A DNA stretch of 64,000 nucleotides from Gammaproteobacteria bacterium (GCA_036986275.1 BTRG01000001.1:27042-91041), one strand, 5' to 3'. Positions 21,348 through 41,055 are shown, numbered from the stretch's first letter. The notes: generated from the sequence alone by a model not told the origin. Numbers and translations are program-made.

Positions 21348-21716
21348 ATGAGCAAGACCATTCTTATTGTTGATGACTCGTCGTCCATTCGCCAAGTCGT
21401 GGGGCTCGCCCTCAAGCGCGAGGGTTATGAAGTGATCCAGGCCGAAGATGGCGTGGACGCACTCAGTAAACTCGATGGCGCCAAGATTCATCTCATTATC
21501 AGTGATGTCAATATGCCTAATATGGACGGCATTACTTTTGTCAAGGAAGTCAAGAAAATGCCTAACTATAAATTTACGCCTATTTGTATGCTCACCACGG
21601 AATCGGAGCAAAGCAAGATGCAAGAGGGCAAGGCGGCCGGTGCCAAGGCGTGGGTGGTTAAGCCTTTTCAGCCGCCGCAACTTCTGGATGCCGTGTCCAA
21701 ACTGGTTTTGCCGTGA
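21348..21716 (+). CDS. cheY: Chemotaxis response regulator CheY
   Basis: Single REC: VDDSSS, SDVNMP, LTTES, VKPF; in che operon. Confidence 0.9.
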   Translation: MSKTILIVDDSSSIRQVVGLALKREGYEVIQAEDGVDALSKLDGAKIHLIISDVNMPNMDGITFVKEVKKMPNYKFTPICMLTTESEQSKMQEGKAAGAKAWVVKPFQPPQLLDAVSKLVLP

Positions 21717-21720
21717 CTTC

Positions 21721-21864
21721 GACGAAACGGGGAAACGGCGAAATAACGAAACGGGGAAATAACGAAACGGCGAATCACAAGCCACGAATAAGGAAAGCAC
21801 AAATGAATAACTATCAAGTCAATGACACGCCACCATTGCCGCTTCACCGGCTCGCCGTTTCGTT
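21721..21864. repeat. 8-mer tandem array plus inverted arm (GAAACGGC family)
   Basis: Six 8-mers at 21724-21771; AACGAAACGGCGA 21761-73 is perfectly inverted at 21852-64. Confidence 0.85.
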
Positions 21865-21906
21865 TATGAGCAACGAATTACAAACAAAGAACCACGAGAC
21901 AGCGAA

Positions 21907-22254
21907 ATGAACATAAAGGCGCGTACAGTCAAGGGCAAATGCAAGGCGAAGATAGAGGGTGATATGACCGTCTATACGGCTTGTGAGATGAAAGAAAAGT
22001 TGCTGCAAAAACTAGCCAAATGTCAGGCCATGGAGCTGGATCTTTCGCAGGTGGTGGAATTCGACACAGCCGGTTTTCAATTGTTGGTATTGCTGAAGCG
22101 TGAGGCGGAACATAAGGAGACGCCGCTGTTAATGAAAAGCCACAGTCCCGCAGTGCAGGATTTCTTTGAACTTTATCACGTCAGCGAACAGGTCGAACGG
22201 GATTTGGCCGGCCGTGACCATGCAAAGACGACGATGGGAGAACAATCGGCATGA
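21907..22254 (+). CDS. STAS-domain protein
   Basis: IEGDMTVYTA, LDLSQVVEFDTAGFQLL; between cheY and cheA. Confidence 0.85.
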   Translation: MNIKARTVKGKCKAKIEGDMTVYTACEMKEKLLQKLAKCQAMELDLSQVVEFDTAGFQLLVLLKREAEHKETPLLMKSHSPAVQDFFELYHVSEQVERDLAGRDHAKTTMGEQSA

Positions 22255-35134: not shown

Positions 35135-36037
35135 ATGACCACTGATTTCGCATTTTCCCCGCAGGCCGAATCGGGCACGACGGCAAACCCAAAAAGGTCG
35201 CCGCTCACTCGTGCCACGCTGGAAAAGGAGATTCAGCAGTTGCCAGCACTGTCGGTGATCGTCACAGAAGTTTTGACCATGATTGACCGGGGTGATGTTG
35301 AGCTTGTGGTGATAATGCAAAAGATCGGCCAGGATCAGGCGCTGGCGGCGCGCATTCTGCGGGTGGTGAACTCACCGTTCTACGGTTTTTCCCGCCACAT
35401 CGGCTCCCTCAAGGATGCGGGCATGATGCTCGGCGTGCATACCCTGTACAACATTGTCATGGCGGCCGGCATCATGGGCCATTTTCCGCCGGGCGAGGAC
35501 CAGGGTTTCGACCGGCTGAGTTTCTGGCAACACGCCATTGGCACCGGCGTGGCCGCCAAGGTGCTGGCCGGCCATTGTGGACTGCATCAGGAAACCGCCT
35601 TCACCGCGGGACTGCTGCACGATATCGGCAAGCTGGTGATGGCGGCCTATTTTCCGGCCGATTTCGACCGGGTGCTGGCCGCACGGAACGCACAGGATTG
35701 TTTGCTGAAAGATGCGGAACAGCTGGTGCTGGGGTTCGATCACACACTGGTGGGGGCCAAGGTAGCGCAGAAATGGAAACTGCCGGTGGCGATTATCGAG
35801 GCCATACGCCATCATCACACCCCCGATTTAGTTACCGATAGACCGTACACCGCCCTGGTACATGTGGCCGATATCCTCTGCCGTGGGCTGGAGATCGGTC
35901 ATGGTGGAGACATGCTGATTCCCGCCCTGGATGTGGCGGCCATGCAGCGCCTGGGGCTGGGTTGGGAGGTGTTGCGCGCCGCCTTGTCGGAAATCGAGGC
36001 ACTGAATGCCAGCGCCAATCTCATGGCAGAGCAATGA
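35135..36037 (+). CDS. HDOD-domain protein
   Basis: LPALS, DQALAARILRVVNSPFYG, FWQHAIG, AGLLHDIGKL, GFDH. Confidence 0.92.
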   Translation: MTTDFAFSPQAESGTTANPKRSPLTRATLEKEIQQLPALSVIVTEVLTMIDRGDVELVVIMQKIGQDQALAARILRVVNSPFYGFSRHIGSLKDAGMMLGVHTLYNIVMAAGIMGHFPPGEDQGFDRLSFWQHAIGTGVAAKVLAGHCGLHQETAFTAGLLHDIGKLVMAAYFPADFDRVLAARNAQDCLLKDAEQLVLGFDHTLVGAKVAQKWKLPVAIIEAIRHHHTPDLVTDRPYTALVHVADILCRGLEIGHGGDMLIPALDVAAMQRLGLGWEVLRAALSEIEALNASANLMAEQ

Positions 36038-36053
36038 GATGGGCATCGCGGCC

Positions 36054-37706
36054 ATGTCCTTCCGGCGTAAGACCGTCCTGGGTATCGCCACTATCGAGGC
36101 GGTGCTGTTGCTGATACTGGTGGGCACCGGGCTTGGTTTTATGCACCAGAGTAACGAGCAGGAGCTGATTAAGCGTGCTACTACCACTGTCGCCCTGTTT
36201 GCTACCACAACCAAGGACGCGGTGCTAGCCACCGATCTGGCCTCGTTGGAGAGTTTTGTCCATGAGGTGGTAAAAAATCCGGGCTTGGTCTACGCGCGGG
36301 TGCGGGATAGGGACGGTATGGTATTGGCACAAGCGGGTGACGCAGCGGCACTGGCACGTCCTTTTGTCGCCGATGTGCAGGTGGACGACGCTACCGACGG
36401 TGTGCTCGATACCTACGAAGAAATCCGCGCCGCCGGTACGACCTATGGCCAGGTCGAGATGGGGCTGTCCATACGGGAGATCTATGCGGCCCTGGCGAAC
36501 GCACGTCAATGGGCCACGGGGATCGCGGTGATGGAAATGGGGCTGGTGGCGCTGTTTTCCTTCGTGCTCGGGACCTATCTTACGCGCCAGTTAAAAAGCC
36601 TTAAACAGGCCGCCGAGCGGGTTGCCGATGGGGATCTGGGTTTTCAGGTGCCGATCAAGGGCCGGGACGAACTGGCCCGCACGGCCATGGCTTTTAACGA
36701 AATGTCGCAGCGGTTACGACAGTTTAATGACGAACTGGAGCAACGGGTGGCCCAGCGCACTGCCGAACTGGTCCAGGTTCAGCGGCAGTTGCAGGACGAT
36801 CTCGAGCGACGCAAGAAAATGGGCGAGGCTTTGCATCGGGAGAAACAGCAACAAAGGGAATTGTTTCGAAAATTGGAACAGGCCCACAATCAGTTATTAC
36901 AATCCGAGAAATTGGCCTCTATCGGCCAGTTAGCCGCCGGCGTGGCCCACGAGATCAATAATCCCGTCGGCTACATCAGTTCCAATTTGGGCACCCTGGC
37001 GGAGTATCAACAGGACCTGTTCCAGGTGCTGGATGTCTATGAATCGCTGGAACCGCTGTTGCAAAACGAGGACCAGGCCTTGCAGCGCATCCATGAGGTC
37101 AAGCAAGCGGCGCGTCTGGATCACTTGCGTCAGGACGTACCGGACCTGCTCAGTGAGTCACAGCAGGGTGTGACGCGAGTGCGCCGGATCGTCGAGGACC
37201 TCAAGGATTTCTCCCACGTCGACGAGGGGGAATGGGCAGAGGCCGACTTGCACCAAGGACTGGAGAGCACCCTCAACATCGTTAACAACGAGATTAAGTA
37301 CAAGACAGAGGTGGTTAGGGAGTATGGCGACCTACCACCGGTGATGTGCCAGGCGCCACAACTCAACCAGGTGTTCATGAACCTGTTGATTAATGCCGCC
37401 CAGGCCATCGAGGAGCACGGGGTCATCACCTTGCGTACCGGCAGTGAGCACGGCTGGGTGTGGGTGGAGATCAGCGATACCGGCCAGGGCATAGAGCCTG
37501 AGCAGCTGAAACGCATTTTCGATCCCTTTTTCACTACCAAGCCGGTGGGTACTGGCACCGGGCTCGGTCTGTCGCTGTCTTACGGCATCGTCCAGGCCCA
37601 TGGCGGGCGCATCGACGTGGACAGCGAGCCTGGTAATGGCACTACCTTCCGGGTATGGCTGCCGGTGGCAGGGGACAAGGGACAGGCAGCGGGGATGGAG
37701 CGATGA
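36054..37706 (+). CDS. Membrane sensor histidine kinase (TM-periplasmic-TM-HAMP, NtrB-like transmitter)
   Basis: QSEKLASIGQLAAGVAHEINNP, NQVFMNLLINA, DPFFTTKPVGTGTGLGL. Confidence 0.92.
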   Translation: MSFRRKTVLGIATIEAVLLLILVGTGLGFMHQSNEQELIKRATTTVALFATTTKDAVLATDLASLESFVHEVVKNPGLVYARVRDRDGMVLAQAGDAAALARPFVADVQVDDATDGVLDTYEEIRAAGTTYGQVEMGLSIREIYAALANARQWATGIAVMEMGLVALFSFVLGTYLTRQLKSLKQAAERVADGDLGFQVPIKGRDELARTAMAFNEMSQRLRQFNDELEQRVAQRTAELVQVQRQLQDDLERRKKMGEALHREKQQQRELFRKLEQAHNQLLQSEKLASIGQLAAGVAHEINNPVGYISSNLGTLAEYQQDLFQVLDVYESLEPLLQNEDQALQRIHEVKQAARLDHLRQDVPDLLSESQQGVTRVRRIVEDLKDFSHVDEGEWAEADLHQGLESTLNIVNNEIKYKTEVVREYGDLPPVMCQAPQLNQVFMNLLINAAQAIEEHGVITLRTGSEHGWVWVEISDTGQGIEPEQLKRIFDPFFTTKPVGTGTGLGLSLSYGIVQAHGGRIDVDSEPGNGTTFRVWLPVAGDKGQAAGMER

Positions 37707-39631
37707 ACAGGGAAGTTTCGGCTAAGGAAAAGACACTGTTACTGATAGAGGACGAAGCGGCGAACCGCACCGCGGTAAAGCGGGCCCTGCGTGACAGCGG
37801 CCTGAACTTTTTGGAGGCGGAGCACGGCCGGCAGGCCCTGGAGATTCTTAGCGACCGGCACGTGGACCTGGTCCTCCTGGATCTGGCCATGCCGGTGATG
37901 GACGGCTTTACTTTCCTGGAACGCTTCCGGGCCATGGAGGCCAACCGGGCCATTTTGTCCGCTACGCCGGTGTGCGTCATGAGCGCCTGGTCCGACGGCG
38001 CCAACCGGCGCCGGGCCATCGAACTTGGTGCGGACGATTTTGTGAGCAAACCAGTGGACAACACAGAACTGCGGGCGCGGGTGCGCTCCCTGCTACGCAT
38101 CAGCACTTACCGTCGGCGTCTTGAGGCCTTTCAGATCCAACTGGACAACAAGGTAAGCACATCTGCCGGGCAGCACATGCCTGCTTCGGAGGCCTTGCAG
38201 GTACAGATCAACCAGTTGCAGCAGGCACGGCGGCAGCAGGAGGTCTGGTCCGAGGCGCAGCTGTGGATCACCGAGGCGCAGACTTCGCTGGCCAGCACCG
38301 AAGACCTGTCACACTTTTATCAGAAGACCGTGCATCACGCCATGGTGATGACCCGCGCGCGTCACGGCGCCCTTGTCCTGTTGGATGAGGCAGGTGAACC
38401 GGGAGAAATCATCACCCCGGGGGCGGCCAATAGCGAATTTCTCCAGCTTGCCTGCCTGGATGACGGGCAGCGAATCCTGCGCGCCCTGTTGGCGCAGGGT
38501 GATCCTTTGCGCGTCGCCGAACCGGAGGCCTGTCCCGGTTGTGAACTTACTCAGCCGGCATGCCCGGCGAGGAGCAATCTGCTGCTGATGCCACTACGTT
38601 TGAATGGCCAACTGTACGGTGCCCTGCTGCTGGCCGACAAACCCGGCGGCGAGGCATTCACGGTCCAGGACGAGAGCCTGTCGCAACTGTTTGTGATCCA
38701 GGTGGCGGGCGTACTGGAGCGCAAGGAATTGCTGGGTGCGTTGCACCGGAGTAACGCGGATCTGCATTCCGAACAGGAGGAACAGCGGGCTCTGATCAAA
38801 CGCCTGCAAGAGGCCCATGAACAGTTGTTGCAGTCCGAAAAGATGGCTTCTATCGGTCAGCTGGCCGCCGGCGTGGCCCACGAGATCAACAACCCGGTGG
38901 GCTTCGTCAATTCCAATATCGGCACCCTGCAGAAATACGTCCAGCAATTGCTGGTGGTGTTGGAGGCCTATGAACAGGCTGAGTCCTTGCTGGACGGTAA
39001 TGCCCTGCGGGACATCCACACAGCCAGGCAACAGGCCGATATCGAATTTCTCAAAGAGGATGTGCTGGCCCTGGTGCAGGAGTCCCATCAGGGCCTGACC
39101 CGGGTCAAACAGATCGTCCAGGACCTGAAGGATTTCTCCCACGTGGACGAGGGCGAGTGGCAGCAGGTGGATCTGCACAAGGGCCTGGATAGCACCCTCA
39201 ATATCGTCAGCAACGAGCTCAAGTACAAGGCCGAGGTGGTCAGGGAGTATGGCGAGTTACCGCTTACAGAATGTATCGGCCCGCAACTCAACCAGGTGTT
39301 CATGAACCTGCTGGTCAATGCCGCCCACGCCATGGAGCAGCAGCGCGGCGTGATTACGATCCGCACCGGCGCCGAGCAAGACTGGGTGTGGGTGGAGATC
39401 AGTGACACCGGCAAGGGCATCGATACCGAACACCTGAAGCGCATCTTCGATCCCTTTTTCACCACCAAGCCGGTGGGTACCGGCACTGGGCTCGGTTTGT
39501 CGCTGTCCTACGGCATTGTGGAAAAACACGGCGGGCGCATCGACGTGGAAAGCGAGCTGGGTAAAGGCACCACCTTCCGAGTATGGCTGCCAGTGTATAA
39601 AGCCGATACACCTATGGAGGTAACAGGATGA
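37703..39631 (+). CDS. REC-GAF-histidine kinase (NtrB-like transmitter)
   Basis: LLDLAMP REC; GAF-like LLLMPLRLNGQLYGALLLADK..FT; AHEINNP. Confidence 0.9.
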   Translation: MNREVSAKEKTLLLIEDEAANRTAVKRALRDSGLNFLEAEHGRQALEILSDRHVDLVLLDLAMPVMDGFTFLERFRAMEANRAILSATPVCVMSAWSDGANRRRAIELGADDFVSKPVDNTELRARVRSLLRISTYRRRLEAFQIQLDNKVSTSAGQHMPASEALQVQINQLQQARRQQEVWSEAQLWITEAQTSLASTEDLSHFYQKTVHHAMVMTRARHGALVLLDEAGEPGEIITPGAANSEFLQLACLDDGQRILRALLAQGDPLRVAEPEACPGCELTQPACPARSNLLLMPLRLNGQLYGALLLADKPGGEAFTVQDESLSQLFVIQVAGVLERKELLGALHRSNADLHSEQEEQRALIKRLQEAHEQLLQSEKMASIGQLAAGVAHEINNPVGFVNSNIGTLQKYVQQLLVVLEAYEQAESLLDGNALRDIHTARQQADIEFLKEDVLALVQESHQGLTRVKQIVQDLKDFSHVDEGEWQQVDLHKGLDSTLNIVSNELKYKAEVVREYGELPLTECIGPQLNQVFMNLLVNAAHAMEQQRGVITIRTGAEQDWVWVEISDTGKGIDTEHLKRIFDPFFTTKPVGTGTGLGLSLSYGIVEKHGGRIDVESELGKGTTFRVWLPVYKADTPMEVTG

Positions 39632-39650
39632 ATGACGAAATGGTGAGCTC

Positions 39651-40215
39651 TACGAAACGGCGAGTGGGCGAAACGGCGATTTTGGAACTAGGTGCCAGTT
39701 AACAGGTTAGATGATGAAACAGATATTAAAACAGCATGTATGTAGATATTGTCACCGGTTTGCTGATTCGCCGTTTCGTAGAAAGGGGAGAAGTAAATGA
39801 GCGAAAAAATCAGTAGTTATAAACAGCTTCGGGTTTATCAAGGAGCGATGGAACTGGCAATGGAGATATTTGAGCTTACAAAGGCGTTTCCAAAGGAAGA
39901 AAAGTACTCGTTGGTTGATCAAATGCGCCGTTCTTCACGCTCGGTCTGTGCCAATTTGGCTGAGGCTTGGCGAAAACGGCGTTATAAAGCGGCGTTTGTT
40001 GCCAAATTGAGCGATTCAGAGAGTGAAGCCTGTGAAACCCAGGTATGGATTGAGATTGCGCAACGGTGTGGATATATCTCTGAAGAGACAGCCCATCGCT
40101 TAGACGATTCATCGGAAAAAATTATGGCGCAGATTATCAGAATGATTCAGGAGGTTGATAAATGGCTAATCAAGTAATTCGCCGTTTCGCCGTTTCGCCC
40201 ATTCGCCGTTTCGTA
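39651..40215. mobile_element. Putative inverted-repeat-bounded cassette carrying a four-helix-bundle gene
   Basis: 29-bp inverted repeat with 1 mismatch (39651-79 / 40187-215); AT-richer interior; no transposase, so mobility is inferred. Confidence 0.55.
39797..40177 (+). CDS. Four helix bundle protein (23S rRNA intervening-sequence protein family)
   Basis: YKQLRVYQ, FPKEEKYSLVDQMRRSSRSVCANLAEAW, EACETQVW..A..CGY. Confidence 0.92.
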   Translation: MSEKISSYKQLRVYQGAMELAMEIFELTKAFPKEEKYSLVDQMRRSSRSVCANLAEAWRKRRYKAAFVAKLSDSESEACETQVWIEIAQRCGYISEETAHRLDDSSEKIMAQIIRMIQEVDKWLIK

Positions 40216-41055
40216 ATTGGCATGGTCTTGGCAGTCTCGGCAATGGCCCCGACACAGGCCGAGCCGCTCACCCTCACCTTCGGTATCGTCCCACAACAAT
40301 CGGCCAGCAAGCTGGCACGGTTGTGGACCCCCATCCTCGATTACCTGGGAGAGCAGACCGGCTACCGCCTGCATTTCAGGACAGCACAGGACATCCCCGC
40401 CTTCGAGCGGCGGCTGGCGGCGGGCGAGTACGACCTTTCTTATATGAATCCCTATCACTACACCACCTTCCACCGTGCGCCCGGTTACGAGGCCTTCGCC
40501 CGGGCCAAGGACAAGCGCATCAAGGGTATTATCGTGGTGCGCAAGGACAGCCCGGTTAAAGACCTGCGGGAATTTAGTGGTCAGATCCTGGCCTTCCCTT
40601 CACCCGCGGCCTTTGCCGCCAGCGTATTGCCACGCGCCTGGTTCAATACCGAAGGCATTCCGATTACCCCTAAATATGTCTCATCCCACGACTCGGTGTA
40701 CCGCACCGTGGCCAGGGGGCTGTATCCGGCCGGTGGTGGCGTGATGCGCACCTTCAACAACGTCGACCCGGCCATCAGCGATCAACTGCGTATCCTCTGG
40801 ACCACCCGGCCCTATACCCCCCACGCCATCGCCGCCCACCCGCGCGTACCCAACAAGGTGGTGCAACGGCTGCAGCAGGCCATGCTGGCCATGGATCGGG
40901 ACCCGCAGGGTAAAAAACTGCTGGCCGCGATCCGTATCAAGGGTTTTGAGCGCGGCGAGGACGGGGACTGGGACGATGTGCGGGCATTGGGCATCGATCT
41001 GCTGGATAAATTGGTAAAACAGCCGATAACAAGACAGGCGCTATATATCCAGTGA
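40162..41055 (+). CDS. PhnD-like (phosphate/phosphonate family) substrate-binding protein, no ABC genes nearby
   Basis: Signal peptide ending TQA-EP, FGIVPQQS, YMNPYHY, SSHDSVY, HAIAAHPRV; GGAGG before ATG 40162. Confidence 0.85.
   Translation: MANQVIRRFAVSPIRRFVIGMVLAVSAMAPTQAEPLTLTFGIVPQQSASKLARLWTPILDYLGEQTGYRLHFRTAQDIPAFERRLAAGEYDLSYMNPYHYTTFHRAPGYEAFARAKDKRIKGIIVVRKDSPVKDLREFSGQILAFPSPAAFAASVLPRAWFNTEGIPITPKYVSSHDSVYRTVARGLYPAGGGVMRTFNNVDPAISDQLRILWTTRPYTPHAIAAHPRVPNKVVQRLQQAMLAMDRDPQGKKLLAAIRIKGFERGEDGDWDDVRALGIDLLDKLVKQPITRQALYIQ

Follow-up and report, generated by a model that had tools for sequence, protein, structure and literature searches.

Proteins of the PF05635/TIGR02436 family, a very large family with no known function, are met in print mainly as the products of open reading frames (ORFs) in 23S ribosomal RNA (rRNA) intervening sequences (IVSs) and as relatives of Avd, the nucleic-acid-binding partner of a reverse transcriptase; in the portions of the literature consulted, they otherwise appear as genes of cas operons and as entries in gene lists. 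Here, a member of this family was analysed that is encoded by a 567-nt element at positions 39649-40215 of a 64,000-nt stretch of a Gammaproteobacteria bacterium genome (GCA_036986275.1, BTRG01000001.1:27042-91041; this whole stretch is called the window), where its gene is enclosed by an inverted repeat in an operon of signalling genes. The closest described systems are the ORF-bearing 23S rRNA IVSs of Coxiella burnetii (helix 45) and Leptospira. According to the consulted portions of PMC4990558, these share with the window element the same protein family in the loop, a terminal complementary stem of ~28-29 bp that contains one mismatch, a comparable size (428-444 nt for the IVSs vs 567 nt here) and the lack of a transposase, together with a patchy distribution and suspected horizontal transfer. 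The window copy differs in its location within an ORF of a protein-coding operon, the 23S gene of this genome being on another contig. Its arms are built up as arrays of a conserved 8-nt unit, and such a design goes unmentioned for the Coxiella IVS in those portions of PMC4990558; one of the arms appears to be translated. Excision by RNase III has been shown for the IVS, whereas at the window locus the stem is a prediction.

The second described relative, Avd of the diversity-generating retroelement (DGR) of Bordetella phage BPP-1, has a homologous four-helix-bundle fold (PMC10053308, consulted in part). The cassette protein, however, scored below the cut-offs of the Avd models (NF033474, 24.9 vs 80 bits; PF22296, 25.7 vs 40 bits), and no reverse transcriptase (PF00078) was matched in the 80%-complete genome, in which template and variable repeats were not searched for. 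An identity as Avd or as part of a DGR was rejected on these scores and on the missing reverse transcriptase.

The whole of the evidence is best explained, with a probability of roughly 0.6, by an acquired cassette of an octamer-armed clade that has restarted the binding-protein gene in which it sits, whose repeat unit is read by its own protein and whose arms may form an RNase III stem. The designation of the element as an IVS-like insert without a transposase in a messenger RNA (mRNA) operon is supported by its sequence and surroundings. The features of the locus, numbered from the first base of the window, are as follows.

39616..39631, + strand: ancestral junction, with GGAGG at 39616-39620 and ATG at 39628-39630 overlapping the kinase stop TGA at 39629-39631; it aligns with the insert-free loci L124 and L197.
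39628..39702, + strand: remnant 24-codon ORF (MNDEMVS, then arm-encoded STKRRVGETA...), apparently the severed old start of the binding-protein gene; it crosses the left arm and stops in the spacer.
39649..39679, + strand: left arm, tandem 8-mers of the type G-A-n-n-C-G-G-n, recognised from the inverted-repeat pairs and the unit profile.
39680..39751, + strand: AT-rich spacer, the predicted loop of the short hairpin, with a weak promoter-like match at 39699-39727.
39752..39782, + strand: third arm, of the same type as the right arm but internal, predicted to pair with the left arm in a local hairpin.
39785..40177, + strand: Shine-Dalgarno sequence GGGGAG and four-helix-bundle gene (ATG 39797 to TAA 40177), 126 aa, PF05635 and TIGR02436.
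40149..40164, + strand: AGGAGG (40149-40154), N7 and ATG 40162, inside the Q-E-V-D-K-W codons of the cassette gene; putative start of the downstream gene.
40162..41055, + strand: gene for a periplasmic substrate-binding protein of the PhnD type (297 aa; PF12974, E 3e-66) whose N-terminus would be a hybrid.
40178..40215, + strand: right arm, about five 8-mers of the TTCGCCGT type, stop-free, presumably translated as IRRFAVSPIRRFV of the binding-protein precursor.

The insertion was placed by comparison with empty sites. The cassette is preceded by a receiver-GAF-histidine-kinase gene, which ends at 39631, and followed by the PhnD-type periplasmic binding-protein gene and then a large PAS kinase. 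No other genome was found in the genus of the window, and the best binding-protein homologues among the related genomes first compared were 56-59% identical and not syntenic; the empty-site relatives were therefore taken from wider collections, L124 being a marine-sediment contig and L197 a gammaproteobacterial metagenome-assembled genome. The binding proteins of L124 and L197 are 75-81% identical to that of the window by tblastn (76% for L124 in a protein alignment). In both, the insert is absent, and the kinase stop and the binding-protein start overlap as ATGA after GGAGG. The window retains this junction, as the last ~100 nt of its kinase gene align with L124 and L197 and GGAGG and GGATGAA stand in the same places. 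Because the kinase/binding-protein junction of the insert-free loci is kept, the cassette is placed by this alignment 21 nt into the coding sequence of the binding-protein gene, near its 5' end and starting at codon 8; L124 and L197 are distant and their signal-peptide regions too diverged for the exact boundaries to be fixed to the base. The 567 nt of 39649-40215 equal 189 codons, and the stub at the old start shares its frame with the ORF at 40162, a 1-in-3 chance that is weak alone.

A search for sequencing runs containing the stretch returned none of RNA and one of DNA, probably from the source sample. In this DNA run, a single identical contig spanned 39448-40467 and no insert-free variant was present; one low-depth strand-switch joint at the arms was taken as an assembly effect. 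The same run contained contigs ~85-87% identical to the binding-protein gene at 40441-40995, presumably from a related strain, which start at 40441.

The first-pass annotation had proposed a transposase-less element inside an mRNA operon, and this agrees with the two empty sites, with the foreign GC content given below and with the nearest protein relatives lying in other phyla. Its picture of an IVS-like cassette interrupting a signalling operon held for the PF05635 gene in the loop of a ~29-bp stem and for the mRNA operon. It had to be revised as to the site, which is not between genes: the cassette appears to sit within the binding-protein gene, in the 5' part of its coding sequence, with the right arm of the cassette translated.

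Two further observations concern the same region. L124 has one HAMP kinase (717-2435) before its binding-protein gene, and the corresponding part of the window (36006-39631) has that kinase (36006-37706) and the receiver-GAF kinase (37655-39631). These two genes have 52 nt in common, and it is the 3' end of the receiver-GAF kinase, not of the HAMP kinase, that matches the end of the L124 kinase; the window has apparently gained a kinase gene, by insertion or duplication, with the junction kept. The outer end of the right arm, TTCGCCGTTTCGTAATTGG (window 40200-40222), aligns with L124 2476-2496 in the signal-peptide hydrophobic core (TTTGCTGTTTCTGTCGCTGG), which could be a chance alignment between T/C-rich stretches or a hint of an arm-unit-like target.

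The profile matches of the cassette ORF lay above the curated cut-offs, with 113.4 bits for PF05635 (cut-off 33.8; E 7e-33; profile positions 1-104 of 106) and 106.3 bits for TIGR02436 (cut-off 24; E 9e-31). The relatives of the protein in the PDB, 2gsc and 2rld, were each deposited with five chains, and a Xanthomonas relative is described as a homopentamer in the consulted portions of PMC4990558. Four of the five positions of the family motif GxxRxxxSxxxNxxE, as given by Zhang and Ye (PMC3936711, consulted in part), are kept in the cassette protein (Q42..R45...S49...N53..E56), the first G being replaced by Q. The GC content was 44.1% in the gene and 39.3% in the 117-nt spacer region between the left arm and the ATG (39680-39796), compared with 60.3% in the kinase gene and 60.7% in the binding-protein gene. 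Among the ORFs of the window and their profile matches, no transposase or integrase was found in or beside the cassette. The search for a promoter returned 2 sites against a shuffle mean of 1.0, which is chance level, and the site in the spacer (39699-39727) scored 9/12. We infer that the cassette, which lacks a convincing promoter, owes its transcription to read-through from the host operon.

The arms 39651-39679 and 40187-40215 form a 29-nt inverted repeat with 28/29 (97%) complementary positions, and the sole mismatch, a G opposite a T, would be a G:U pair in the sense RNA. The left arm consists of the tandem 8-mers CGAAACGG CGAGTGGG CGAAACGG CGA, and the right array is longer, with ~5 units of 8 nt at 40178-40215. 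The third arm pairs with 39649-39679 over 31 nt at 81%, the outer 15 nt matching at 15/15, and its 3' end lies 2 nt ahead of GGGGAG (39785-39790), the Shine-Dalgarno sequence of ATG 39797. The 12-mer ACGAAACGGCGA, with at most one mismatch, occurs in 11 copies in the window compared with 0.29 expected, and none of 100 shuffles reached 11. The inverted repeat flanking the gene had a z score of 18.9, whereas of 300 sites with matching geometry drawn at random from this genome, none reached z 6 (maximum 4.9). The order of the units was mirrored between the arms of the window copy at 23/24 positions, compared with 16.6 on permutation, and none of 5 permutations was as good.

Folding of the RNA from 39640 to 40230 gave -197.6 kcal/mol (z -4.9; equalled by 0/100 shuffles) with the long stem closed. 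The predicted pairing energies were -64.8 kcal/mol for the left with the right arm and -47.9 kcal/mol for the left with the third arm. The local hairpin (39645-39790) alone had -54.2 kcal/mol, and forcing it costs 17.5 kcal/mol over the whole element. In an Rfam search of 39000-41000, nothing relevant was matched; the lone match, to raiA-hairpin, had an E value of 0.67 and was at chance level. The first-pass annotation had drawn a 29-bp inverted repeat around the gene with one mismatch and arms built from 8-mers, a third arm matching at 15/15 ahead of the Shine-Dalgarno sequence of the gene, and two alternative pairings, one of them a long stem looping out the ORF, and it had called the gene AT-richer than its neighbours. 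These points were borne out, the pairings in the predicted folds and the last one by the GC content of whole features instead of the two 60-mers first used.

The binding-protein gene appears to be restarted from within the cassette. The earliest start of its ORF is ATG 40162; the next in-frame ATG, at 40222, lacks a Shine-Dalgarno sequence, and a start there would give a protein without a charged n-region. From ATG 40162, the frame crosses the right arm as MANQVIRRFAVSPIRRFV and continues as IGMVLAVSAMAPTQA, a hydrophobic core and an A-x-A-type end. Compared with L124, the binding protein has kept its mature part complete and well conserved, indicating that it needs a start and a signal peptide. 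We infer that the gene now starts at ATG 40162, the only plausible start, and that the old start has been replaced; the right arm would thereby supply the arginine-rich (RR-rich) n-region of the signal peptide. The K-W codons (AAATGG) are conserved across the clade, and a long ORF (233-504 aa) opens from the same K-W ATG in 6 of the 73 relatives with enough downstream DNA, so that a start inside the cassette tail is, as far as ORFs can tell, unusual but not unique. In the right arms of the clade, 1421 nt in total, a single stop triplet was present over all frames (shuffles: mean 10.1, minimum 4), with 37/38 relatives stop-free, because the unit nCCGnnTC cannot form a stop codon. The left arms were not depleted of stops (43 vs 37 expected).

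Related cassettes were collected in two sets. In the order of the window, 29/103 genomes had a PF05635 match, and a flanking inverted repeat at z>=6 was present at 20/25 loci with enough flank; nearly all arms of this set were tandem 7-mers, with a sequence that differed among loci. The wide set was drawn from species-representative genomes, in which 600 pattern hits were found, 485 were confirmed and the 80 nearest relatives of the window protein (56-74% protein identity) were kept. These came from Ignavibacteria, Acidobacteriota, Desulfobacterota, Nitrospirota, Verrucomicrobiota, Omnitrophota, Chloroflexota, Bacteroidales, cyanobacteria and others. An inverted repeat at z>=6 was found at 42 of the 76 loci with enough flank, and 40 of these 42 had period 8. 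In a tree of 97 proteins (8 of the 105 loci were omitted, the ORF being short or interrupted), all 38 period-8 rows fell in one clade with a support of 98 in the Shimodaira-Hasegawa-like approximate likelihood ratio test (SH-aLRT), and all 15 period-7 rows fell outside it, so that a single change is needed; the two sets were sampled differently, and the sampling helps this separation. The same contrast was present within one genome, the window copy having 8-mer arms and belonging to the octamer clade and a second copy (contig 24, L002) having 7-mer arms and belonging to a heptamer clade. Because the two cassettes of one genome lie on opposite sides of the tree, arm type follows the cassette, not the host.

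Among the 92 loci scored for orientation, both neighbours were co-oriented with the cassette gene at 50 and both were opposed at 10, which fits a dependence on host transcription. None of the 105 loci resembled or touched a 23S rRNA gene. Internal extra arms at the 60 armed loci numbered 3 upstream and 11 downstream, the third arm of the window being outside this count. The element is a recently acquired cassette, a member of an octamer-armed clade spread across many phyla. A literature search, with subscription journals and supplements outside its scope, returned no description of a repeat-armed four-helix-bundle cassette outside rRNA.

The arms of this clade keep particular bases. The phased profile of 38 octamer arms was G 0.95, A 0.86, n, n, C/G, G 0.90, G 0.93, n, and the right arms showed the same octamer profile in mirror image. 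With the same phasing, the maxima in 200 shuffles were 0.69, 0.56, 0.73 and 0.71 at unit positions 1, 2, 6 and 7. Four octamer positions (G1, A2, G6 and G7) were thus held and three drift, despite protein identities of 56-74%. Because pairing alone cannot hold particular bases, this argues for a sequence-specific reader. Such a reader probably travels with the cassette, and the cassette's own protein is the only cassette-borne candidate.

The octamer motif was found at one further place in the window.

21719..21865, + strand: gene-less hairpin armed with the same 8-mers, flanked by a CheY-like gene whose stop is at 21716 and a STAS gene beginning at 21907; -38.6 kcal/mol.

The units of this hairpin are GAAACGGG, GAAACGGC and GAAATAAC on the left and one matching arm on the right; it begins 3 nt past the CheY-like stop and ends 42 nt before the STAS gene of a chemotaxis operon. 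It has the look of a cassette relative, either emptied or in miniature. No homology of the spacers was found outside the arms of the two octamer loci, and no empty site was found for the hairpin, the adjoining STAS gene being unmatched in 30 relatives at E 1e-5. Clusters of GAAACGGCGA occur at 2 loci only in the 2.43-Mb genome, one of them without a gene. The expectation that the motif would be co-located with four-helix-bundle genes therefore failed, the second four-helix-bundle gene of the genome having 7-mer arms.

That second gene (G000 contig 24, L002 1395-1876, 116 aa) has arms of 27 nt at 85% and an extra internal arm downstream. It lies directly after rplM-rpsI, and rpsI adjoins the gene at 10/29 other loci of the order search. 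Because this adjacency recurs, the second cassette appears to be old and to have become fixed at a single site, in contrast to the recent copy in the window.

Other mobile or repetitive elements resemble the cassette in part. The Correia/nemis elements of Neisseria and similar miniature inverted-repeat transposable elements (MITEs) are transcribed together with genes, and RNase III cleaves them at the hairpin that their inverted ends form. As small inverted-repeat inserts at gene junctions that are transcribed by read-through and are possible RNase III substrates, they are comparable to the cassette, and also to the hairpin at 21719-21865. They are, however, gene-less and present in many near-identical copies with target duplications, whereas the cassette has a gene, arms of tandem units and two loci per genome. 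An identity as a classical MITE was rejected on the presence of 2 loci only in 2.43 Mb, spacers that do not align, no flanking direct repeat and a conserved gene. Integron cassettes also consist of a single promoterless ORF co-oriented with host transcription and have folded inverted repeats that are recognised; their attC site is single, at one end, with an integrase nearby, whereas the window element has two flanking arms and no integrase among the neighbouring ORFs. Direct-repeat arrays of the heptamer TAACTGA have been reported in Beggiatoaceae, cyanobacteria and Bacteroidetes (PMC4679880, consulted in part). These are likewise short tandem units, polarised, placed just upstream of starts, found in distant phyla and without a known mechanism. 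They differ as direct arrays of a 7-nt unit rather than an 8-mer, and neither a four-helix-bundle gene nor a flanking inverted pair is mentioned in the consulted portions of PMC4679880.

Under the explanation preferred here, the old Shine-Dalgarno sequence and ATG 39628 would now open a 24-codon stub, and the binding-protein gene would survive through AGGAGG-N7-ATG in the tail of the cassette gene and a pyrimidine-rich right arm unable to encode stops. Read-through of the host operon would transcribe the cassette, and its own protein, which has pentameric solved relatives, may read the unit positions G1, A2, G6 and G7. In the RNA, the arms could close a 29-bp stem like the RNase III substrate of the 23S intervening sequences. 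In the Coxiella IVS, RNase III cleaves the 28-bp stem in its middle (consulted portions of PMC4990558), and an rnc gene is present in this genome. A mid-stem cut at the window locus would leave ATG 40162 and the main part of the binding-protein gene on separate fragments. The third arm, being transcribed before the right arm, could hold the left arm in a local hairpin and spare the downstream gene, and ribosomes coming from the old ATG 39628 would also traverse the left arm.

Several results weigh against this explanation. The mismatches between arms, counted on the sense strand at 64 loci, were G:T/T:G in 113 cases and A:C/C:A in 95 (p 0.24), and the lack of a G:U bias gives no support for selection on a sense-RNA stem. 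Permutation of the unit order at 52 loci lowered the arm identity only from 81%, a value favoured by its choice as the best alignment, to 71%; because the permuted identity stays at 71%, most of the arm complementarity reflects the shared unit rather than pair-by-pair covariation. A cut in the long stem would remove the only good start of the binding-protein gene and would be harmful unless avoided. For Coxiella, the S23p protein was concluded to be probably not made in vivo (consulted portions of PMC4990558). By the criterion used, 33 of the 97 tree loci were without a clear inverted repeat. The use of ATG 40162, finally, follows from sequence logic only, and an ORF reaching up through a stop-free arm is expected in ~1/3 of frames. 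The missing G:U bias and a unit sequence conserved beyond pairing would also suit arms that act at the DNA level, as terminal binding arrays or single-strand hairpins for insertion and excision, the RNA stem being a by-product. The factor acting on them would be the cassette protein or a host recombinase or transposase, comparable to the folding of integron attC sites or to MITEs moved in trans. Such a role is in line with the clean insert relative to two empty sites, the spread across phyla, the gene-less derivative with the same arms elsewhere in the window and the mirror symmetry of the arms, by which each DNA strand begins with a purine-rich array. We consider it possible but doubtful, since the cassette has no transposase or integrase in or beside it, shows no target-site duplication at 39649 or 40215, and shares these arms with only one other locus in 2.43 Mb, with no burst of copies. 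The co-orientation bias (50 vs 10) moreover points to a dependence on host transcription that a purely DNA-level element would not need.

An unlikely reading is that the four-helix-bundle protein is a domesticated regulator that binds arrays in operon mRNA and tunes the translation or stability of neighbouring genes, here that of the binding protein, whose putative start is situated between the arrays. The old and retained cassette after rpsI, with rpsI beside the gene at other loci as well, would be expected of such a regulator, as would the alternative pairings found at about a quarter of the loci, and a translational role has been proposed for the Beggiatoaceae heptamer arrays upstream of start codons (PMC4679880, consulted in part). 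The window copy, by contrast, is recent, compositionally foreign and absent from relatives, its nearest relatives adjoin unrelated genes in unrelated phyla, and there is no pointer to a function tied to this operon. Very improbable are a DGR remnant, for which the weak similarity to Avd speaks and against which stand the sub-threshold scores and the lack of a reverse transcriptase match given above, and a chance palindrome around an ordinary small gene, which is hard to square with inverted repeats around 20/25 and 42/76 relatives compared with 0/300 random sites.

The family also appears in accounts of clustered regularly interspaced short palindromic repeats (CRISPR). In the consulted portions of two CRISPR surveys (PMC3936711, PMC10910872), 23S_rRNA_IVP genes are listed with cas operons or arrays, and one such gene lies between cmr3 and cmr2 of Pleurocapsa (PMC3936711). 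These genes may be cassette insertions rather than functional partners, and their tandem-repeat arms were perhaps scored as arrays.

The locus shows the gene-in-a-stem design of the IVS as an insert in an ordinary operon. It adds the placement by empty sites inside a coding region, the apparent restart of a host gene through an arm, the unit with four held positions and the negative G:U test. A repeat unit with four fixed positions is directly usable in binding assays, and the apparent replacement of a host start codon and signal-peptide n-region provides a natural case of insert tolerance inside genes. If the proposed model is true, the choice between the competing RNA structures decides whether the downstream gene keeps its start. 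As a more general and tentative idea, one we would not yet call probable, PF05635 proteins and arrays of 7-8 nt may together be one self-recognising module, in which a pentamer reads a clade-specific unit (here G-A-n-n-C/G-G-G-n) and a stop-free downstream arm and start-carrying tail spare host genes; the 23S IVS would be one landing place of this module and many bacterial heptamer and octamer arrays its footprints. Dispersed 7-8-nt arrays would thereby gain a candidate protein partner, and the cassettes, if this idea is true, would form a translation-compatible class that is very widespread and has not been described so far.

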